A stretch of 20,000 bases of DNA from an uncultured virus (IMG/VR IMGVR_UViG_2061766007_000514) (lineage: Duplodnaviria; Heunggongvirae; Uroviricota; Caudoviricetes), in IMG/VR virus record IMGVR_UViG_2061766007_000514. One strand, written 5' to 3'. The notes under the pieces are model-generated. The model worked only from the letters and a program-made list of their open reading frames with translations, searched no databases and had not been told where the DNA came from. The translations under genes were made by a program, and so were the position numbers. This document shows positions 1,610-20,000 of this stretch, in pieces (positions within the stretch are counted from its first letter, which is position 1; every line of letters begins with the position of its first letter).

Positions 1610-2020
1610 TTACATTTCAATAAGTTTCGGACTTGCTTTATCCTTTTCTACTTCCTCCCGAAGATTCTCAGGAAGAATTCCAGACACAAACGCAGAAGCT
1701 TCAGCCTCATCGGTGACTAACTGCATATAGTAGTCAGAATAAGCCTGTGTCTCTTTAAACTCACGAAGAAGCTCAGGGGATTTCATGAATCGTCTACCAT
1801 CAGGTGCGATAACACCATATGCATTATCCATAATCAGCTCAAAGTACTCCATAATACGAGGAATATCGCGTTTTGCGATAATTTCCTCAAGAATCTTATC
1901 AAGCCCTCCGCTAATAGAATTATACATGTTGGTAAGCTCTGCTTTAGTGAGGTTAAAGTAAAAAGTCTCCTCACGCTGATTACCGAGAAAGTCGGTATAA
2001 GCAATTTTCTTCTGATACAT
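1610..2020 (-). CDS. Putative tail assembly chaperone
   Basis: First gene after the major tail gene; GAAAGGAG RBS; acidic helical 136-aa protein (YTDFLGNQREETFYFNLTKAEL). Confidence 0.65.
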   Translation of the reverse strand: MYQKKIAYTDFLGNQREETFYFNLTKAELTNMYNSISGGLDKILEEIIAKRDIPRIMEYFELIMDNAYGVIAPDGRRFMKSPELLREFKETQAYSDYYMQLVTDEAEASAFVSGILPENLREEVEKDKASPKLIEM

Positions 2021-2043
2021 TGGTATGCTCTCCTTTCAAATTT

Positions 2044-2810: not shown

Positions 2811-3799
2811 TTAGGTATCCTCCTTAAAATATGTGGAATAATCGTAGAACTTATATCCATCTGTTGATGGACGAATACGAATTAATGATGTATTTTGAAT
2901 TTCTTGTATAACTTCTCTAACAGAAGCATGATCATAAGGTAATNNNNNNNNNNNNNNNNNNNNNNNNNNGCGGGGCTCTCTTCATCATGTATAATCGTAT
3001 ATTCAATTCCTGGACGTTTTTGTACTTGAGACTGCGGCGGATTATAATATACTCGAGTTTCAGACTCGCGATGTACAGCTCTAGGTATAGAATCATCGGA
3101 AAACCGAAATGTATCCCAAACCCACAAACCTACAGTATCAATAGCATTAACGAGATAAGGACGAATTTCGTTAACAATACCTAATTCAACAAGATCTTCG
3201 AAAAGAGGTAATGTTGGTGGTGTCGTATCAGTTCCATAAAGGACATCCTCAAACACCTTCATTCCATCTCGTCCAATTTTTCGACTATCAAACGTAATAC
3301 TCGATGCCGGGTACATATTACGATACTTTGCCGGAACTGTGAAAAAATCCCAACCATGAACAACCGCATCTGCACCTTCAGCTATTGTCTTATAAGTCAC
3401 TTCGCCCGGATTCAAATTAATTGCATAGATTACATGAAGAATGTAGTCATATTGGTTAATCAATGATCGATAACATAATCCAAAAGATTTACGATGTTGC
3501 AGATTGACTTTTAAACCAAAAGTGGGTTCTTTCCAGCCATTGCACAATGACAATTCTGATGGATAGTCATACACTTCTATACGACCACTAAGCCCTTCCT
3601 GAGCCCGAATANNNNNNNNNNNNNNNNNNGCAAACAGCCTAGAGAGCTCCCCTCCGGTTGGAATCTCAGTAATAGCTCGAATACCATTCCATGCGACACC
3701 AGGTGCATAAGTACCGTCAAAATTCTGTAAATACAAAACCCCATTAGATACGCCCATATGATAATCGCGCGGAAGAGCATCCCAATTCAGTCTTGCCAT
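2811..3799 (-). CDS. Divergent tail-tube paralog with C-terminal tail-terminator-like extension (spans two N-gaps)
   Basis: ATG 3799 with AGGAGGT RBS. The first ~205 aa align by eye to the major tail protein (MARLNWD..GVSNGVLY..GVAWNGIRAITEIPTGGE..LYGTDTTPPTLP). After the second N-gap an alternative frame (LPYDHASV...YSTYFKEDT*) ends at TAA 2813-2811, abutting the next ATG. Confidence 0.75.
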
Positions 3800-6709: not shown

Positions 6710-7940
6710 TTTGATTTTTATCCTCCTCTTCTTCGCTCGTCCGGTCATTTGATTTATCCGGATCGGGGTCTGGCATATTACTATTACGAAGTTCATCCGC
6801 CCTTGGATCATCCGACGGTTTCAAACCAATAATCTGACGGAACTCATTACTGGACATAATTTCATTACGCGTCATCTTATCTGCAATTTCTGCCAGAGTA
6901 TTAACTGGGACAAGTTTGAATGGATCACGGAAGAACATTATATCCTGTCCACGAGTTCGAGCCGCCTGAGATAAGAATTTTCTCTTCATTTCATCACAGA
7001 TTGCAGAAATGATCGGCTCTATCGTTCTAGTATAATAGTTCATCATAGCTTCATCGGTTGCAGTACCATCCATGATCGCCTGTGTAATACCTAACTGGCT
7101 GTAAAGCATACTCGTAAGATACTCCACTTGACTCATTAATGTATTATCTACAGCACGATTAAGCTGTGTGATCTTTTCAGTCCCATCTGTATAAGCGATT
7201 CCATACTTGGATCCGCTTAACTGCCGTTCGATGTCCTTACGTCGTTCTTCAGCCTGATCTCGTTTGGTCTGAGTCTTAACAACATAAGGCAATTGAATAA
7301 TCAGATCCAGTTTCCCAGAACTATTATTCTCATCAAGAATATCTAAAAGATTAAGTTTACGAATTAATCGCTGCATCGTCGAGTTCGGCTCATTCATTAC
7401 TGAATAAAACGGATTCTCAATGATTGCACACATAGTTTTTGGAAGTGTTAAATCCTGTTTGCGTCCGGTTTTTTCATTGTATACACGCACCATAACATGC
7501 TCTGGATACCAATTAACTATCTTTGCTGTTCGCATTGATAAAATATCATAAGCTCCAGGTGAAATGTCCTTGTCTACATCTGTATCTGTATCAACCGGNN
7601 NNNNNNNNNNNNNNNNNNNNNNNNNNNNNNNNNNACGGCCAGTCTGATCAAGATTAGCAGAAAAACTCAGGCAGTCATTTAAACCAGAATTAATAATTTC
7701 TTTAAATCTTCCATTATCATCTATACGTACATGATGAACAGCTATAGAGGCAGCATCTGTAGCAATTCGATTATATACAGAAGTTACGATAGTCCGCTCT
7801 GTCCCTCGAGATAAGCGAATACGATCTGGACGATAGTAACTTCCACTAATATAAGTAGGTTTACCGATAGTTTCGGTAGGACTTCTACTTCGGAAAACAT
7901 TCCAAGCATTACGAAGCCTGGAAATAAGAGAAGTTTCCAT
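6702..7940 (-). CDS. Portal protein
   Basis: About 412 aa directly upstream of the protease/capsid gene; IVTSVYNRIATD, GKLDLIIQLPY, YYTRTIEPI, NEIMSSNEFRQIIG; contains one N-gap. Confidence 0.92.
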   Translation of the reverse strand: METSLISRLRNAWNVFRSRSPTETIGKPTYISGSYYRPDRIRLSRGTERTIVTSVYNRIATDAASIAVHHVRIDDNGRFKEIINSGLNDCLSFSANLDQTGRXXXXXXXXXXXXPVDTDTDVDKDISPGAYDILSMRTAKIVNWYPEHVMVRVYNEKTGRKQDLTLPKTMCAIIENPFYSVMNEPNSTMQRLIRKLNLLDILDENNSSGKLDLIIQLPYVVKTQTKRDQAEERRKDIERQLSGSKYGIAYTDGTEKITQLNRAVDNTLMSQVEYLTSMLYSQLGITQAIMDGTATDEAMMNYYTRTIEPIISAICDEMKRKFLSQAARTRGQDIMFFRDPFKLVPVNTLAEIADKMTRNEIMSSNEFRQIIGLKPSDDPRADELRNSNMPDPDPDKSNDRTSEEEEDKNQNE

Positions 7941-7975: not shown

Positions 7976-8284
7976 TTATTCAGTGTATTTCTTTAAATAC
8001 CACTGGATTCTAGCTGCTCTCTCCATATGTGCTTCATGTAAATAATCGTAGAATGCCTGCATAGCAGGAGGAGGATCTCCTTCTGTTTCACGATATGCTT
8101 TAATAAGTTTTACAATGGCGTTATGAAGATCATCCATATGGCCCATTTCATCTTTTGCATGTTTGTAAAACATATCAGAAATATCAGGATACTCATCCTT
8201 AACTCGAATGGCTTCTTTTATATATTCCTCGGCCCCGTTCAGTTCATCCTCGATCATTGCAGAAATATCTTTGATGATCTTCAT
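7976..8284 (-). CDS. Small helical ferritin-like-superfamily protein (cassette gene D)
   Basis: AGGAGG RBS; IEDELNGAEEY and DEMGH (ExxH) on successive helices, plus a His-rich third helix (YLHEAHMER). Confidence 0.6.
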   Translation of the reverse strand: MKIIKDISAMIEDELNGAEEYIKEAIRVKDEYPDISDMFYKHAKDEMGHMDDLHNAIVKLIKAYRETEGDPPPAMQAFYDYLHEAHMERAARIQWYLKKYTE

Positions 8285-8305
8285 CTGTTAACCTCCTGTG
8301 ATAAA

Positions 8306-8333
8306 GGGAGAAGAAGATTATACTCCCTCTCCC
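8306..8333 (-). promoter_or_regulatory. Intergenic RNA hairpin between cassette genes C and D
   Basis: Minus strand GGGAGAGGGAG-TATAAT-CTTCTTCTCCC; 11-bp stem with two G-U pairs valid only on the minus transcript; short TTT tail. Confidence 0.6.
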
Positions 8334-8340
8334 ACCTTGA

Positions 8341-8858
8341 TTAGCCANNNNNNNNNNNNNNNNNTACTTACCCAGCATAGTCAACAGATACTGAGACTGA
8401 TTATCCGCAGTAATCTGATTCTGCGCAGCATTAAGAGCAAACTGCGTATCCTGGAGACGATCCTGAAGCATCTGAGTCTTAATAGCGCAGCAACACTGAT
8501 CCAGATTGTAGCCAAGCTGAGCAATAGCAGCACCCTGCGTTGCAAAGCCCTGATTAATCGCCTGCGTGATCTGGTTGAAGCCCTGAATAGCGTTCACGCC
8601 AAGAGTATCAATCTGGCGAGCAACTTCATAATTGTTATTAGCACTGGAAAGAAGAATAGCCTGCTGATTCATGCCGCTAGTCTGAGCAGCAATGGCAGCG
8701 CTCAGATCTGCCTGAGTAACAGCATCGCCACGACCGCCCCAAGCACCATTCCCACCGAGAAACAGAAACAGAACGATAAGCCAGATCAGTCCATTACCGC
8801 CCATGTTGCCATCACCGAGTGCAGCCTTGATGTCACTGAGAGAGAAATTAGAATCCAT
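8341..8858 (-). CDS. Gly-rich membrane / coiled-coil protein with CCC motif (cassette gene C)
   Basis: AAAGGAG RBS; hydrophobic GLIWLIVLFLFLGG segment, Gln/Ala/Asn helical body, DQCCCAIK. The true stop is probably TAA at 8343-8341 after the N-gap (the track's extension to 8244 crosses the gap). Confidence 0.7.
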
Positions 8859-8887
8859 TGTTACATTGCTCCTTTGTAAAAAATTTA

Positions 8888-8908
8888 AAACAGCTCAATG
8901 AGCTGTTT
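8888..8908. promoter_or_regulatory. Perfect palindrome / hairpin between cassette genes B and C
   Basis: AAACAGCTCA-A-TGAGCTGTTT; followed on the minus strand by T-rich sequence and then the gene C RBS. Confidence 0.6.
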
Positions 8909-8917
8909 CATGCAAAA

Positions 8918-9169
8918 TTATTTAAGAAAATTCCTGAAACTGTCCACGTTAGCTTGTGCCTGCTGGTATAACTGCTGTTTCTGAGTTTCAGTCATACGCC
9001 CAGAGGCACAAAGAGAATCCACAATTGCTTTAGGATCTTTTCCTCGCATCATCTTTGCAAATTCAAGGAAGCTCATTCCTTTCGCGCTTCGTGGAACGTT
9101 TACTTGCTGTTGCGGTTGTGCCGCTTGCTTCTGATTCTGAGAACGCAACATCGACATAATCGGGTTCAC
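8918..9169 (-). CDS. Small Gln/Met-rich hypothetical protein (cassette gene B)
   Basis: GAGG RBS; MNPIMSML..FLEFAKMMRGKDPKAIVDSLCASGRMTETQKQQL. Confidence 0.7.
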   Translation of the reverse strand: MNPIMSMLRSQNQKQAAQPQQQVNVPRSAKGMSFLEFAKMMRGKDPKAIVDSLCASGRMTETQKQQLYQQAQANVDSFRNFLK

Positions 9170-9493
9170 GGTGCCTCTTCATCTCCTCTTCCAATTTTGC
9201 AATCCGCTCCTCAAGAGTAGCAACTCGTCTAGTCTCCTCATCTTCATGAATGGAAATATCTAAACCGGTGATTGTCTTGTAGCCAGCATCATCGGTCTTA
9301 ACATACCAAATAATCGGATCTGTTTCGTCCATGAGTAAGATCTCACTTGCTTTCGGCATGTCATAAGCATTTGCACCGGCTCNNNNNNNNNNNNNNNNNN
9401 NNNNNNNNNNNNNNNNNNNTACTGCATAAATGGATTATTTGAAGAACCCATAGAATTATTCTGCAGCATCTGTAACCAAGGATTGTTTACCAT
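9063..9493 (-). CDS. Hypothetical protein (cassette gene A); one gene split by an N-gap in the ORF track
   Basis: GGAGG RBS and ATG 9493 (MVNNPWLQ...). After the gap the frame reads AGANAYDMPKASEILLMDETDPIIWYVKTDDAGYKT...; C-terminal coiled coil (LEERIAKLEEEM). Confidence 0.7.
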
Positions 9494-9517
9494 TTTACTG
9501 CCTCCAAACGAGTTTAA

Positions 9518-10099: not shown

Positions 10100-10546
10100 C
10101 TAAGCGCCTACTACTATATGAAGTTTTTTACTGCTATCATTGACATACATCTGCATAAATCGCTTACCACTCTCAACTTGCGCCGGATTGAGCTCTCTAG
10201 CATACTGTTTCTCCATCTTCTCATAAAATCGATTTGCCTTTTTTAAACTTCGAGCGTACTTCTTATGAGCGCGGCGATATTTCTGTGCAGTTCGAACTAA
10301 AGCATCATCAGATGTGTACCACCTACGAGATTTCTTCTTCAGTTTACCAATCGCATGCTCAGACTTAATATACATTTTATCTGCTTTTGACTGAATCCGA
10401 AGCAGTTTATCAGAAGCCTTTCTATAACGCTGATAACCTTCAGGAGTTAAAGAGCCATCCTCATTCTGATAACGGCGAACTCCCCAACGCTGGCCTTTTG
10501 TACCATGGTGATAGAGTTCACCATTAACTAACACATAATCACTCAT
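10100..10546 (-). CDS. Basic protein with N-terminal ELxHxGxKGQRWGxRR motif (DUF7211-like, from memory), paralog 1
   Basis: Likely start ATG 10546 (ATGA overlap with the TerL stop); MSDYVLVNGELYHHGTKGQRWGVRRYQNEDGSLTPEG. Confidence 0.75.
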   Translation of the reverse strand: MSDYVLVNGELYHHGTKGQRWGVRRYQNEDGSLTPEGYQRYRKASDKLLRIQSKADKMYIKSEHAIGKLKKKSRRWYTSDDALVRTAQKYRRAHKKYARSLKKANRFYEKMEKQYARELNPAQVESGKRFMQMYVNDSSKKLHIVVGA

Positions 10547-12294
10547 CCAAACGCCTCTCTGTTCACTTTCCAAGCAATGAAAGCATCCATCATACTTGCA
10601 ACAGGGTCAATCTTCTGCTCATAACGACGCTTCCAAAGCTTTCTATTACCATTACTATCCTCAATCGTTATACAATTACCCATGGCGAATTGCATTATGG
10701 ATTCATCAAATAATAAAAGCCGGTCCTCGGCCAACTTTCTCAGTTCACCAAGAGGCACCGACTCTGTTTTTACACCCTGTATAACTTTCTCAATTCCAAA
10801 TGGCCCATTTTCTTGAGCCCATCGATTGACAAACTCCTTAGCATTATACGGGTCATATCCAAAACAGCACACATCATACTCGTTATCGATAATATGCCGA
10901 TCTAGATCTTCATAGACTTCTTCTAGATCAAGTACTGTTCCATTCAGAACCATCAAACTACCTTCTCGTATGAACTCTTCATACTTACTTCGCATAGCCG
11001 CTGGCAATTTCATTAATGTCTGTTCAGATATGTAATTTCTTGTCTTAACTCCGAACTGACTACCAGGTAAAGGAAATAGAAATGTAAAGGAGCAGAAGTC
11101 ATCACCTTGAGAAAGGTCCGCACCAAGAGCGCATTGCATCTGCCAATAACTCTTAGGCGGATGAGGAATCGTTTGCTCGTAGGTAAAGAAGTAAGTATAA
11201 CCCTCCATCGGAATTCCAAATCTTTTAGCTAGAATATCATTCCGATTAGCAGGAGCTGCTTCCATTCTTTCTACATCGGCCTGATATGCCTCGTAGGAAA
11301 CACTTTGACCAATATTTGGATTTGCCTTAATCCAAAGATCAGGTCGGGCTACTTCTGATACATCGTCAAGCTTATACCACCAGATAGAAGTATGAATGGC
11401 ATTGTATTCGCCTTTTAAAATCTTCATAAGTTCCATTTTGATGGTATCACCAGGGCCATTCCGGACAGTTCCTTCACTGCTGGTCGCTACTATAAGGTAG
11501 TCGGGAATATTACCCTTACTAGCACCCTGCTCAATAGCACCGATAACATCCTCACGAATATCACCAGAAAGCCATTCATCAATTGTCGCGACTTTACAAC
11601 GTAACCCCTGAAGCTTATCAATACTCATTGGTCTGATACGAAGAATAGAACCATTCAAGAAATTCTGAATTCCCATCTTCGTAGATGCTAATTTCACTCG
11701 ATTAGCCTTAGAACCGGTTGTATTTTGAAGTGAGCCTTCCGTTAAAAACTGAAACAATGGTCCACGGCTCCGAGTAATAGCTGTTCGAAGAGGCGAAAGC
11801 ACTTCATCTGCCTGATCCATTGTCGGAGCAGTAGTAATCTGATCTGTTGTACTTAGATCAATGTTAAGAAATTGGTTATGGATGCAACTGTCGTAAATTG
11901 TCTTAGCTGCACCTCGACCAACAATAAGAATCTGTTTATTAATCAGTCTTCGCTTAATTCGTTTCCGCACATAATGTCCACCATGACCACTCGGATCAGG
12001 TTGGTAAACACTTCTTTCGATAAAATAATACCATCCGAAAATCTGTTCACCCCAAAGCTTGAAACTGTCCATTAATTCCAGATCGCTACCATCTGTCAGG
12101 GTTAATTCGTTCTCACAGCAAGCGATCCAACCTTCAACTGGATCAGGATCATAGTACACACCTGGATTTGCAATTAATTCATCGATGCGTTTCATCTCCA
12201 TAGCGACAGTATCGCATACAGGAATTTCGCCACGAATCACGGCCTCTCTAAATTGGCCATAGTATTTCGGAACAGCCGTATTAGAGAGTGACAT
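10543..12294 (-). CDS. terL: Terminase large subunit
   Basis: 583 aa; Walker A-like VGRGAAKT, Walker B ATIDEW, nuclease acidic motifs LGADLS and KIDPVASMMDA; AAAGGAG RBS. Confidence 0.95.
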   Translation of the reverse strand: MSLSNTAVPKYYGQFREAVIRGEIPVCDTVAMEMKRIDELIANPGVYYDPDPVEGWIACCENELTLTDGSDLELMDSFKLWGEQIFGWYYFIERSVYQPDPSGHGGHYVRKRIKRRLINKQILIVGRGAAKTIYDSCIHNQFLNIDLSTTDQITTAPTMDQADEVLSPLRTAITRSRGPLFQFLTEGSLQNTTGSKANRVKLASTKMGIQNFLNGSILRIRPMSIDKLQGLRCKVATIDEWLSGDIREDVIGAIEQGASKGNIPDYLIVATSSEGTVRNGPGDTIKMELMKILKGEYNAIHTSIWWYKLDDVSEVARPDLWIKANPNIGQSVSYEAYQADVERMEAAPANRNDILAKRFGIPMEGYTYFFTYEQTIPHPPKSYWQMQCALGADLSQGDDFCSFTFLFPLPGSQFGVKTRNYISEQTLMKLPAAMRSKYEEFIREGSLMVLNGTVLDLEEVYEDLDRHIIDNEYDVCCFGYDPYNAKEFVNRWAQENGPFGIEKVIQGVKTESVPLGELRKLAEDRLLLFDESIMQFAMGNCITIEDSNGNRKLWKRRYEQKIDPVASMMDAFIAWKVNREAFG

Positions 12295-12299
12295 TTTTC

Positions 12300-12328
12300 T
12301 TGCTCCTTTATATCAAACGTGATAGAAT
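12300..12328 (+). promoter_or_regulatory. SigmaA-type promoter for the plus-strand small gene
   Basis: TTGCTC (12300-12305), 17-bp spacer, extended -10 TG-A-TAGAAT (12320-12328). Confidence 0.65.
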
Positions 12329-12358
12329 TATCTCAAATTTTGTAAAGGAGGTAATTCT

Positions 12359-12529
12359 ATGGGTTACAGAATCAGGATTTGGGATGAGGACGACAACGAA
12401 TATACTGGTACTACCGTCTATTCCACGTTTCGAGAAGCTTTACACCGTATGAACGAAGATATGGAAGAAGATACCTATATCGATGGTAAAGTAATTGTAT
12501 GTTCAGAAGTCATTAGCGAAGATGAGTAA
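12359..12529 (+). CDS. Small acidic hypothetical protein, 56 aa (moron-like; not in the ORF track)
   Basis: AAAGGAGGT RBS at 12344-12352, ATG 12359, MGYRIRIWDEDDNEYTGTTVYSTFREALHRMNEDMEEDTYIDGKVIVCSEVISEDE*; fills the intergenic gap and its stop abuts the convergent gene's stop. Confidence 0.8.
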   Translation: MGYRIRIWDEDDNEYTGTTVYSTFREALHRMNEDMEEDTYIDGKVIVCSEVISEDE

Positions 12530-13126
12530 TTACTTTTTCTTTTTGTTCTCTTTATTATCAGTATTTAAATATTTCTGAAATTTATTAGGATAATCCTTAA
12601 CGTCTTTAACTGTAGGTAAATTATACTTTGTGAATGTATTGATGACTCTGGCACTTGCATTCCAAACGTTAATACCACTATTAACAAATTTAGCGACCTT
12701 TTGCATAGTGTCAGCCGTCTTCTCTACATATTCCATGCCTGTTTTCTTTTTAGGCATTAACTCCGCAAGCGACTTTTCTTTATTATTTCTAAGAATTACG
12801 GCATCAATCTCTGCATTAGTTAAATGCTTTCTGTACTTGTAAGCTGAAGAAATATCTCCAGACTCAATAATCTGTTTTTTCTTTTCTTCAGTTAATTCGT
12901 CGTCTTTTTTCTCTTCTTCATGAAGTTTTTTAGGTAAGGTCTTTTGCTTATTTTTCTTAAATAAACCTCTATGTTTTCGCTTACTTTCATCTGCCTGAAA
13001 AGGTCTCTCCCCACTACCAAGAGGATATCTACCGGAACCTACCTTTGCGCCATCCCGTTTACTACGTCCGGAGTGCATTAAATAGAGTCGGCCATCTAAT
13101 GACTCTACAATCTGATACTCATCCAT
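12530..13126 (-). CDS. Lys-rich hypothetical protein with N-terminal LMHSG...GSGRYPLGSG motif
   Basis: ATG 13126 inside the AATTCAAAATG motif right after an N-gap; composition differs sharply from the upstream half of the track's 329-aa ORF. Confidence 0.65.
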   Translation of the reverse strand: MDEYQIVESLDGRLYLMHSGRSKRDGAKVGSGRYPLGSGERPFQADESKRKHRGLFKKNKQKTLPKKLHEEEKKDDELTEEKKKQIIESGDISSAYKYRKHLTNAEIDAVILRNNKEKSLAELMPKKKTGMEYVEKTADTMQKVAKFVNSGINVWNASARVINTFTKYNLPTVKDVKDYPNKFQKYLNTDNKENKKKK

Positions 13127-13134
13127 TTTGAATT

Positions 13135-13489
13135 NNNNNNNNNNNNNNNNNNNNNNNNNNNNNNNNNCGACGTTTAATCGCCATTCATATTCATTTATTT
13201 GCCTCTGAAAGCTTTCCAAAATTACGCTCGATGCTGGAGGATCGAACATCAACTTAACTTTCAGATACATATAAGTTTTTACCAGCCCTAACTTTTGCCC
13301 AGCCGGGAGAAATTCGTCCCATGTACTAAGTGCATCAGAGATCTCAAATCCACCCTTAGGACCAACACCAAGCTGGTGTAAAACCATAAAAGCACTATTA
13401 ATATCAGTTATGATGGCTTCATCAAAACTGTCATCTTCTTCTGTTAAACCAACATTTAACTTGATTGATGTTAAGATGCTATCTGTCAT
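13135..13489 (-). CDS. Putative head-tail connector/adaptor (stop probably inside the N-gap; end approximate)
   Basis: GAGGAGG RBS, ATG 13489; SILTSIKLNVG..FDEAIITDINSAFMVLHQLGVG..VKTYMYLKVKLMFDPP..EYEWRL helical pattern resembling gp6-like connectors. Confidence 0.6.
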
Positions 13490-13500
13490 GTTATCCTCCT

Positions 13501-13914
13501 CTAACTTCTCCAGGGACAAGTATCAAACCTGCTCCTCTGTATCACGGGAGGAGGAAGCAGTCTCTCATCGCCATAATGTATTGCGTTATGGGTTCTACGA
13601 GTTGTACAAATAAGATAGTCAGGGTTATACACCTCTGGCACAAGTTCAACCAGATCCGTAAGTTTTACTGGATTCATATGATGTATAATAATTAACCCAT
13701 AAATGTCATAACCTTCCGAGGCCAGATCACAGCCAAGATCACGAACTATGACCTGGTCTCTTACGCGCTTCCACTCACTTGAATGATAAAATTTCTGATT
13801 CATCCACCGATCGAAACCAAACGTTTCTTCAGCAACTCTACCATCTAGTTTGAGATAAGCGAAGCGTTCTTCAAAGGTTGGGAACTGGATTAGTTCAGAA
13901 TATGTCCTCATCAT
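13501..13914 (-). CDS. Terminase-associated HNH endonuclease
   Basis: FYHSSEWKRVRDQVIVRDLGCD..IIIHHMNP..NPDYLICTTRRTHNAIHY; likely start MMRTYS at 13914/13911. Confidence 0.85.
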   Translation of the reverse strand: MMRTYSELIQFPTFEERFAYLKLDGRVAEETFGFDRWMNQKFYHSSEWKRVRDQVIVRDLGCDLASEGYDIYGLIIIHHMNPVKLTDLVELVPEVYNPDYLICTTRRTHNAIHYGDERLLPPPVIQRSRFDTCPWRS

Positions 13915-14245
13915 CACTTTCTCCATTCCCACTATACTTGCGCATCGCTGCAATAGCTTTTGCATAGAGCTCCTCAGATGCTTTAGAAGCTTGTAATGCT
14001 TCTGTTTTAGCTTCTAGGAGCTCTTTCTGTTTTTCCATAATTTCTTTCTCAAGTCGCTCTTTTGTAGTAGCCAACTTAAGAAAATGGACCAACACCTGAG
14101 AAGATGCGGTCCCTTCAAGTAATTGCTTTTCAGCTTGGTCAATCGCCAATGCTATTAATTGATTTTCTCGACCTTCCGGTGTCATTGCCGGTCGTAGTCT
14201 CTGGGGAGGTTCCGCTTCCCCGATACTCGCTTTTTTTCGAGGCAA
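13895..14245 (-). CDS. Putative terminase small subunit
   Basis: AAAGGAGG RBS, TTG start; helical N-terminus plus coiled coil; next to HNH and upstream of terL; call is mostly positional. Confidence 0.5.
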   Translation of the reverse strand: MPRKKASIGEAEPPQRLRPAMTPEGRENQLIALAIDQAEKQLLEGTASSQVLVHFLKLATTKERLEKEIMEKQKELLEAKTEALQASKASEELYAKAIAAMRKYSGNGESDDEDIF

Positions 14246-17465: not shown

Positions 17466-18125
17466 CTATCTACCATAAATTCTATAAAGATATAGATTAG
17501 ATATAGTATTTGAAGATAAACGAATATTCGTATCTGACGAACTTGATACACTAATAGCCCCAACGACTGTTCCACGACTTATTGGAACAGAAATAGTGTA
17601 CGATCCTATTAGATTAGCAGGAAGTGTGACTATTGAACGCGATGAACCAGTTGATGTTGAGGCAAGAAACAATAATGTAATATCGCGATAATCGGTCTTC
17701 TTAGTAACTCCATTTGGATACGTCAATGTTAAATCTGTAGTTCCACTAGTCGGTATCTCCAAAGGCAACTCACCACTAGCAGGTTGCCAGATTGTACGAT
17801 ATTGTAAACTTGGCACGACTTTCCAATCCGTCCACGTAGCACCCGAATCGCTGGTATATCTGCNNNNNNNNNNNNNNNNNNNNNNNNNNNNNNATTGTAT
17901 AACTGTCTTAGCAGAGTCAACGCCCCGTCGTAAACAAATGAGCCAACCATTATTATATATATTTCCACTTGCACCGTAAGGTGCATTTGCTGGAGCATAG
18001 CCCCATGTATAAATTCCTGTTTCTAAAATGTCGTTAAGATCGCCACCAGCTGATTCTCGTAGAATAGTTCGTGCGACAGGAAACCCAAAGCTTCCTAGGT
18101 CTCTTTTTATTGTGCCACTAGCCAC
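17466..18125 (-). CDS. Tail fibre/receptor-binding protein with pyocin-knob-like domain
   Basis: DLNDILETGIY..ANAP..GWLICL..TVIQ..RYTSDSGATWTDWK; contains one N-gap. Confidence 0.7.
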   Translation of the reverse strand: MASGTIKRDLGSFGFPVARTILRESAGGDLNDILETGIYTWGYAPANAPYGASGNIYNNGWLICLRRGVDSAKTVIQXXXXXXXXXXXRYTSDSGATWTDWKVVPSLQYRTIWQPASGELPLEIPTSGTTDLTLTYPNGVTKKTDYRDITLLFLASTSTGSSRSIVTLPANLIGSYTISVPISRGTVVGAISVSSSSDTNIRLSSNTISNLYLYRIYGR

Positions 18126-19230: not shown

Positions 19231-19246
19231 TTTAATTACTCTCCTT

Positions 19247-19735
19247 TCATGTAGTTAAGATCAAATGCCCCTGGCTATTGATCTCGTAATCTGGCGCTGT
19301 ATCACCGGTGTAAGTTAATATCAGATGGCCAGAGGTATTCACACTGAACCCATACTGCCCATCGACAGGAACAGCGACACCAGTTCCGCCCTGGGGACCC
19401 TGAGGACCCTCAACACCCTGAGGACCACGTAATCCCATAGCAGTAAAGCCGCTATCAGAATACTCTGTACCATTCCACAACATCCATTCACTATCTTCGC
19501 TGATTATAGGGGGATGCGTACTAAAACCTGCATAGTATTTACTATTATTATGGTATGTTGAGTCACCGATTGGTACATCATGGCCATTTCGCTTACCAAC
19601 AGCCCAAGCTTCAGCATCTAACTTGTCAGCCTCTGCCATATCTGCTGCGGCACGAAGACCATCTGCTAATGCATCACGAACTTCTTCACCATAAACAGCG
19701 TGCATTATCTTGTATATTGCTTCTTCTAGAGTCAC
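19247..19735 (-). CDS. Minor structural/fibre protein with short collagen-like repeat
   Basis: GTG start with AAAGGAG RBS; AVYGEEVRDAL, AEAWAVG..TYHNNSKYYA, GLRGPQGVEGPQGPQG, duplicated GHLIL motif. Confidence 0.65.
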   Translation of the reverse strand: MTLEEAIYKIMHAVYGEEVRDALADGLRAAADMAEADKLDAEAWAVGKRNGHDVPIGDSTYHNNSKYYAGFSTHPPIISEDSEWMLWNGTEYSDSGFTAMGLRGPQGVEGPQGPQGGTGVAVPVDGQYGFSVNTSGHLILTYTGDTAPDYEINSQGHLILTT

Positions 19736-19756: not shown

Positions 19757-19930
19757 CAGCAGTACTTATCAGAACTTATGGGACCTTTTCCTCTTGAAAG
19801 GAGAGACTTTGGAGGCAGACACAAACACTATAGGCAGAAATTTTGGAGGCAGTTTCTGATACACAACTAGNNNNNNNNNNNNNNNNNNNNNNNCGATTTA
19901 AGGCCCCATAAGCCCTGATAAGTACTGCTG
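19757..19930 (-). ncRNA. Putative structured RNA/leader with anti-Shine-Dalgarno loops
   Basis: 31-bp inverted repeat (19757-19787 and 19900-19930) whose 3 mismatches are all G-U on the minus transcript; internal CUGCCUCCAAA x2 and CUCUCCUUUCAA. Confidence 0.6.
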
Positions 19931-20000
19931 AAATGGGTTAAGGGAAGAAGCCCCTGAAAAACATTTTAAGCAAACTTCCCCCCGGAGAATTTTGAAAGAT

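Follow-up and report, generated by a model that had tools for sequence, protein, structure and literature searches.

A long-stemmed putative leader RNA in Oengus/1706/Rima-type siphophages with loops complementary to ribosome-binding sites of the phage's own genes

Introduction

The regulatory RNAs RNAIII and RsaE of Staphylococcus aureus carry unpaired C-rich motifs, often several of them, that are complementary to the Shine-Dalgarno (SD) regions of many mRNAs. Phages, too, make RNAs that pair with phage mRNAs close to the start of translation. Those known as c4 (P1 and P7), CI (P4), sar (P22) and OOP (lambda) each act on a single operon concerned with immunity or lysogeny, and c4 and CI are cut out of a longer transcript. 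In phi29, a structured RNA, the pRNA, is encoded near the phage genome end. In T4, according to PMC3014915, RegB cuts GGAG in early SDs, spares most later mRNAs and has been proposed to free ribosomes for genes expressed later.

The element described here shares with RNAIII and RsaE a conserved structure and a C-rich motif predicted to be unpaired in many family members (see below), and differs from them in being phage-encoded, in its single very long closing stem, in having neither a sigma-70 promoter nor a terminator of its own, and in that its predicted targets are genes of the phage itself. Unlike c4, CI, sar and OOP, it would address a dispersed class of ribosome-binding sites (RBSs) from a late leader, and it is kept in Arthrobacter phages as well as in Lactococcus phage 1706. 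Unlike the pRNA of phi29, it accompanies a large terminase and HNH module and cohesive ends, and has RBS-complementary loops. In further distinction from all of these RNAs, it has no Rfam match. As with RegB, early phage mRNAs would be targeted through a shared SD signature (for RegB, GGAG with an A-rich 3' flank; PMC3014915), but the reader would be a base-pairing RNA loop in a late leader and not an early-made protein nuclease, and its flanks co-vary with the targets.

A full-text literature search, mostly without subscription papers, found no published description of the element, and the accessible parts of two papers on these phages (PMC5513430 and 10.1101/842583) hold no mention of it. 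The motif was not found in four supplements of the screen by Fremin et al. (PMC10690425), a data set of which these files are a part and which may hold a fragment of the element as an unnamed candidate; the WC1 transcriptome paper (PMC10986025) deals with an unrelated cluster. This is a real, widespread and apparently undescribed phage RNA, in which a known pairing principle would be used in a new setting and with a new logic.

Phage lineage and genomic position

The window, i.e. the whole stretch of 20,000 nucleotides analysed here (IMG/VR record IMGVR_UViG_2061766007_000514), belongs to an Oengus/1706/Rima-type siphophage, as its large terminase places it in this family. It consists of a minus-strand late operon with fibre-like genes, genes for endolysin, HNH protein and large terminase, a portal region, a protease-capsid fusion, genes for major tail and chaperone, and the start of the tape measure (Table 1). 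The right arm lies outside the window, and right-arm results given below refer to the genomes of relatives. Two related major-tail-like genes stand in tandem on the minus strand (2882-3799 and 2100-2810). Nine N runs of 17-56 nt interrupt the sequence (425-480, 2944-2969, 3612-3629, 7599-7634, 8348-8364, 9383-9419, 13135-13167, 17864-17893 and 19871-19893); some of them shift frames, in the portal gene and in cassette gene A, so that ORF breaks at these points are probably non-biological.

The 116-aa protein encoded next to the HNH gene, probably the small terminase to judge from its position, matches 233 cultured records, mainly of Arthrobacter, Gordonia and Streptomyces phages, and also Lactococcus phage 1706 and FP_oengus. 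Prophage copies in genomes of Lachnospiraceae and Oscillospiraceae account for 47 matches. A YonO-like polymerase is a signature of this lineage according to Koert et al. (10.1101/842583), the late genes of SPbeta are transcribed by YonO (PMC5467207), and for cluster AU PMC5513430 reports cohesive ends and lists 9-base 3' ends. A conserved motif, AAAATTCTCCGGGGG, begins at about base 6 in many contigs and in the cultured 1706, Rima and Trustiboi genomes, which places the element just inside the left genome end, some 20 nt before the first late gene. This end motif presumably serves as packaging site and/or late promoter. Variants of it (AAAATT..CCGG.GG) also occur inside genomes (G001 at 12321-12539, L149 at 29073, and G011 near 26100 from the end motif); such internal copies, including those at the start of the right arm, perhaps represent a protein-binding site.

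The element in the window

The initial annotation had described a 31-bp pairing on the minus strand, and its coordinates hold (Table 1): the helix comprises 28 Watson-Crick and 3 G-U pairs and ranks first among the inverted repeats of the whole window in an inverted-repeat scan. The motifs it had listed in the enclosed region, CUGCCUCCAAA at 19852-19842 and again at 19818-19808 and CUCUCCUUUCAA at 19805-19794, were found at these positions, as was the 23-nt gap of Ns, a place at which relatives L069-L071 have an additional C-rich motif. Folded with its Ns, the third motif has its UCCUU mostly paired in the prediction (unpaired probability 0.22), while in 26 of 39 family members the best motif is predicted to be unpaired with a probability above 0.7.

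Neither a promoter-like (sigma-70) site upstream of the window element nor a terminator between 19200 and 20000 was found, and none of 40 elements has a U-tract after the stem. The lack of a U-tract and of an upstream sigma-70 site suggests that the RNA either stays attached to the late mRNA or is released from it by cleavage. A long stem of this kind would suit RNase III.

Table 1. Features of the window discussed in the text (RBS, ribosome-binding site)
Feature	Position	Strand	Basis or remark
Conserved left-genome-end motif AAAATTCTCCGGGGG	19979..19993	-	few bases inside probable cohesive end
Closing stem, 5' arm	19900..19930	-	compensatory changes in L069-L071
N run in loop domain, 23 nt	19871..19893	.	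sequence gap
Accessory anti-RBS loop 1 (ACUGCCUCCAAA), CAGAAA/UUUCUG hairpin	19842..19853	-	complements gene A RBS
Accessory anti-RBS motif 2 (CUGCCUCCAAA)	19808..19818	-	sequence
Family-conserved anti-RBS motif (CUCUCCUUUCAA; core CUCCUUUC)	19794..19805	-	invariant in 43/43 rows of alignment A1
Closing stem, 3' arm	19757..19787	-	no U-tract after it; about 20 nt to first gene
First late-operon gene, 162 aa, weak tail-fibre-like matches	19247..19735	-	ORF and matches
RBS of fibre-like gene 19230	19239..19249	-	11-nt match to conserved motif
116-aa gene adjoining HNH gene (probable small terminase)	13895..14245	-	directly follows RNA in many relatives
Large terminase	10543..12294	-	72% identical to Rima-like Streptomyces phages
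RBS of cassette gene A (start 9493; N run interrupts gene)	9497..9508	-	12-nt match, loop 1
RBS of tail assembly chaperone gene	2028..2039	-	12-nt match
Tail assembly chaperone (PF23803 Phage_TAC_17)	1610..2020	-	Pfam

Strand and RNA nature of the element

Alignment A1 was built from members of the two largest sequence clusters and has 43 rows. In it, 95.3% of 1256 cells are paired, as compared to 31-49% in slid-register controls, 26 of the 33 pairs are changed on both sides, and 193 G-U cells stand against 10 A-C cells. The core of the loop is invariant in all 43 rows while the sequence of the stem drifts. Related rows inflate the shuffle control, and we therefore relied on pair types and the slid control. 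The same asymmetry is apparent when 40 elements are aligned separately (145 G-U and 24 A-C; G-U exceeds A-C in 37 of 40, and the reverse never occurs), and the window's own clade shows the same pattern of pairing and strand, with compensatory changes of the stem in L069-L071. Covariation of the stem together with the excess of G-U over A-C makes the element an RNA of the late strand, which bears out the minus-strand RNA helix first proposed for the window.

It is hardly credible on these data that the opposite strand is the functional one, with its GGA/RBS motifs either forming a CsrB-like sponge or acting as RBS for a small ORF read leftwards. The plus strand of the window does fold (-57 kcal/mol, against -62.5 kcal/mol for the minus strand) and an AUG follows the antisense SD in a few members, but many members have no start codon there, the wobble counts of A1 point the other way, and a model built from 43 members with the window left out (R1) scores the window element at 48.2 bits on the minus strand (E about 3e-10) and at 36.3 bits on the plus strand. 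A protein sponge of the CsrB/RsmZ type with GGA loops was rejected, as the wobble asymmetry puts the RNA on the UCC strand.

Distribution in the family

Eighty loci were chosen solely through the 116-aa protein, of which 79 were examined (L145 starts within the gene). The end motif, searched as a pattern, is present in 61 of the 79, and in 56 of these 61 a UCCUUU is enclosed; a traced helix of at least 19 pairs with UCCUUU was found in 55 of the 61, and UCCUUU in 42 of the 47 left after 14 duplicates were dropped. Several of the 18 loci without a pattern match show the element by inspection. Further members came from pattern scans that contain the motif, and half of the family set is therefore biased towards it. 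Among the 166 distinct elements, stems range from 21 to 59 pairs and enclosed regions from 32 to 167 nt, with two or more C-rich motifs in 58. Carriers of the element include 1706, Oengus, Trustiboi, Phaby, Sporto, Arcadia, Qui and Daddyjeff; in Tanis and Duffington a long stem is present but the motif is missing.

Pairing rather than sequence is conserved in the stem, since an exact search with its sequence gave 5 unrelated chance matches and blastn against cultured phages a single 26-nt match. Model R1 misses nine divergent members on which it was tried (1706, Trustiboi, Arcadia, Sporto, Daddyjeff, L071, L108, L118 and L126), which have only architecture and motif in common with the family. 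With filters off, a search with R1 did not list the window element, a miss for which the length of the window or its Ns are suspected. The Rfam search proposed at the outset was carried out with Rfam 15, and gave four weak matches in the window, none over the element, and in 20 gap-free relatives one weak miRNA match (26.7 of 85 bits). The protein encoded by the first late gene was discarded as a family marker: 63 loci match it through a collagen-like repeat region only, and the element is in none of them.

The element adjoins the cohesive end and often directly precedes the gene for the small-terminase-like protein, a setting that would suit a packaging element, whether as a cruciform formed by the DNA at cos or as an RNA that serves the terminase motor in the manner of the pRNA. 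This explanation is nevertheless highly improbable. The G-U asymmetry fits RNA and not DNA; the element lies 2.4 kb from the genome end in Daddyjeff and 0.9 kb in Arcadia, an internal position which, with that asymmetry, led us to reject a DNA cruciform or cos palindrome; in Rima, Scap1 and Poco6 the left end keeps the end motif but no element was found there; and co-variation with RBSs, described below, would be left unexplained.

Other structured regions were noticed in these genomes. Arthrobacter phages have non-coding left leaders of about 600-770 nt (L366 1-770, L370 1-600, L372 1-580, L373 1-610) with several more long hairpins beside the anti-RBS element, and these may form a larger ncRNA region. 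In 1706 (L150), a second long stem of 39 pairs at 46472-46651, located between orf65 and orf66 of the right arm, starts at a TATAAT box and encloses ACUCCUUUCU; it is possibly a second anti-RBS RNA. FP_oengus (L151) has a second long hairpin at 23950-24150, between gp57 and gp58.

Loops and ribosome-binding sites

The perfect complements that the initial annotation had reported between the loops and three RBSs of the window were all recovered, over 12 nt for gene A (9508-9497) and the chaperone gene (2039-2028) and over 11 nt for fibre gene 19230 (19249-19239). The complement of each loop 12-mer is present once on the coding strand of the window. In a control of 3000 shuffles that kept the SD cores and permuted only the remaining loop bases, matched against the 32 start regions of the window, two matches of at least 12 nt arose in 0.3% of shuffles and a top-three sum at least as high as observed in 0.2%, while a single 12-nt match was reached in 6%. 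The RBS of the chaperone gene follows directly on a terminator-like hairpin, itself 3' of the major tail gene. Targeting of gene A, suggested earlier, gains from comparison with the closest relative: loop 1 differs from the loop of L069 by one base, complementary to a one-base change in the RBS of gene A, and the two genes are homologous (71% identity over 75 aa). Gene A belongs to a four-gene cassette (7976-9493, minus strand) between terminase and portal, with one weakly ferritin-like gene and the others without Pfam match; an equivalent cassette starts at 10917 in L069, and in both phages the accessory loop matches the RBS of its first gene.

The wider comparison, which had been suggested for the proposed anti-RBS loops, used 40 elements (36 of 50 IMG/VR records, 1706, Oengus, L069 and the window) and starts from our own SD-favouring ORF caller, restricted to genes with an SD of at least 4 nt. 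For matches of at least 11 nt, the loop's own genome ranks above others in 30 of 40 cases (p=2e-4). Flank bases beyond the AAAGGAG core fit the own genome better by 0.66 nt, in 31 of 36 elements, and in 14 dissimilar genomes own flanks match over 2.17 nt as compared to 1.45 nt, a value not attained in any of 100,000 permutations. At AAAGGAG sites outside starts, the own-genome gain is only 0.14 nt (p=0.036), as compared to 0.64 nt at starts, so that composition or kinship explains a small part of the own fit. The longest perfect matches extend over 20 nt (1706), 18 nt (G034 and G017) and 17 nt (G011). In Daddyjeff the core itself has changed on both sides, a loop UUCCUUUC occurring with early RBSs GAAAGGAA; this loop matches 11 of 54 right-arm starts of its own genome over at least 9 nt and none of 28 late starts over at least 8 nt, while loops of other phages match 2-3 of the 54. 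At the level of sequence, complementarity to the SD regions of several mRNAs is beyond chance.

Genes carrying the matched tag

The window matches visible so far concern three late-operon genes. In the relatives, GAAAGGAG is present in 273 of 1215 right-arm starts (beyond 24 kb; 22%), 37 of 618 other left-module starts (6%) and 21 of 30 tail-chaperone starts, and the right arm is the richer part in 27 of 31 genomes, the exceptions being G006, G017, 1706 and Oengus. In 1706, the longest matches (20, 14 and 12 nt) nevertheless belong to right-arm genes of the UAAGGAGG type. About three quarters of right-arm genes have no tag, and duplexes with right-arm genes are on average only 0.9 kcal/mol better than those with late genes. 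The chaperone gene, named as a target at the outset, is matched throughout the family, with a mean of 10.6 nt against 5.3-7.0 nt in other left-module gene families; several right-arm gene families average 8-10 nt. In each of the five actinophages tested, the Phage_TAC_17 homologue is a right-arm gene at a distance from the tail module, and the chaperone exception thus fits the right-arm pattern. The annotation or timing of these homologues (L149_33177, L366_33620, L367_31859, L368_36646 and L369_30571) merits attention.

Tuning of virion proteins had been put forward as a main function, and is not supported as such, because the majority of strong matches are to right-arm genes, outside the window. 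In this reading the leader would pair in cis or in trans with the RBSs of chaperone, fibre gene and gene A, the right-arm matches being a by-product of a shared strong RBS. We think it unlikely. The chaperone RBS is indeed the best single partner family-wide (-17.5 vs -12.6 kcal/mol, 28 of 30 genomes), loop and RBS have changed together at gene A, and the tag occurs without the loop in Rima and Tanis. Right-arm genes, however, account for most of the longest matches within a phage's own genome (17-20 nt), the loop persists in actinophages whose chaperone gene is itself in the right arm, and the first downstream gene has no significant advantage over other late genes (p=0.15). In the window, the RBS of the first late gene pairs with the loop over 7 nt only. 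Cis control of the first gene is not supported.

The case of Rima and Tanis, in which no complementary loop was found anywhere between genes and RBSs of the GAAAGGA type are kept in early genes, indicates that the tag can exist without the RNA. It may be no more than a strong RBS that repeated promoter cassettes have spread. The right arm, with replication and accessory genes, holds genes for a primase-polymerase, a helicase and SSB as well as repeated promoter-like boxes, and is presumably early/middle; a pattern tried as promoter of right-arm genes did not hold in the Firmicute phages, so that "early" rests on gene content and on promoter-like repeats seen by eye. A repeated promoter-like box TTACA-N7-CTATAATGAG (or TATTATGG) stands before many small right-arm genes, and repeated hairpins with an AACA(A/G)G loop and a U-tract precede tagged starts, as seen in the right arms of L149, L366, L368, G002 and G011.

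Pairing might also be real and non-repressive, stabilising or processing the tagged mRNAs, or the loop might bind a phage protein that reads the tag, both of which we regard as quite unlikely. A U-tract precedes 83 of 290 tagged right-arm starts as compared to 145 of 1027 untagged ones, as would be expected after processing or termination sites, and the chaperone is needed during assembly. The duplex, on the other hand, covers the SD itself, which by the established mechanism of sRNAs excludes the 30S subunit, and co-variation is with the complement and not with the same sequence.

Silencing of host mRNAs, a further early suggestion, finds little room in the data. The host control comprised four lysogens, two of them with near-identical elements; in these, the tag class accounts for 3-5% of the host starts sampled, as compared to 4-9% of late starts and 16-39% of starts in the right arm, and matches of at least 10 nt were seen at 8 of 296 host, 6 of 97 late and 38 of 182 right-arm starts. 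Extrapolation of the host figure would give about 100 genes per host, and CUCCUUUC matches part of the Firmicute 16S tail, which together could speak for broad host shut-off or for a decoy of a factor binding the 16S 3' end. Such a role is very unlikely, though: flanks track phage RBSs, the host rate equals that of late genes, a U stands directly 5' of the core in 132 of 170 motifs, and the full 16S-like anti-SD CACCUCCUUU occurs in only 3 of 166 loops. Mimicry of the 16S rRNA 3' end was rejected on this last count. Judged by these bases, the loop is tuned to GAAAGGAG-A and not to the 16S tail.

Proposed mechanism and significance

As features of sequence, the strand, the conservation of stem and loop, the co-variation with own RBSs and the distribution of targets are established. 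The explanation that we consider reasonably probable is that an antisense leader RNA made late shuts down early/middle mRNAs by pairing with their SDs, as an RNA counterpart of RegB in T4. The element would form the folded 5' leader with which the late transcript of Oengus/1706/Rima-type siphophages begins; transcription would start at the left end, probably by the YonO-like RNA polymerase. Its stem of 20-59 bp would present one or more pyrimidine-rich loops, pairing in trans with an extended SD tag (UUGAAAGGAGAAAA-like) of many right-arm genes and of the chaperone gene. Such pairing would block ribosome loading and turn down the tagged mRNAs, while most virion genes, with RBSs that pair over 5-8 nt only, would escape. 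Extra loops, such as CUGCCUCCAAA of the window, may extend this reach to single genes, and the RNA could act after release from the mRNA, e.g. by RNase III, or while still attached.

A bolder form of this proposal, which we advance tentatively and hold to be somewhat doubtful, is a programmable RNA timing switch, in which an RBS "zip code" on early/middle genes would be silenced by the first RNA made by the late polymerase. Added loops, possibly copied from target starts as the 17-20 nt matches might suggest, would then capture newly gained genes. If true, a single antisense leader would set gene timing across the whole genome, a control kept in phages of two bacterial phyla.

How translation of early mRNAs is stopped is understood in few phages, and the known class-wide case, RegB of T4, is a protein. 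An RNA acting through a shared RBS tag would, if this is true, represent a new control logic in a lineage that is very common in gut, dairy and soil. Cultured carriers, growing on hosts that are harmless, are at hand in Lactococcus phage 1706 and in Arthrobacter phages of clusters AU, AM and AW, with natural loss variants in BI and DJ, and the long-stem scaffold with its swappable anti-RBS loops could possibly be put to use in Gram-positive bacteria as a compact repressor of translation.
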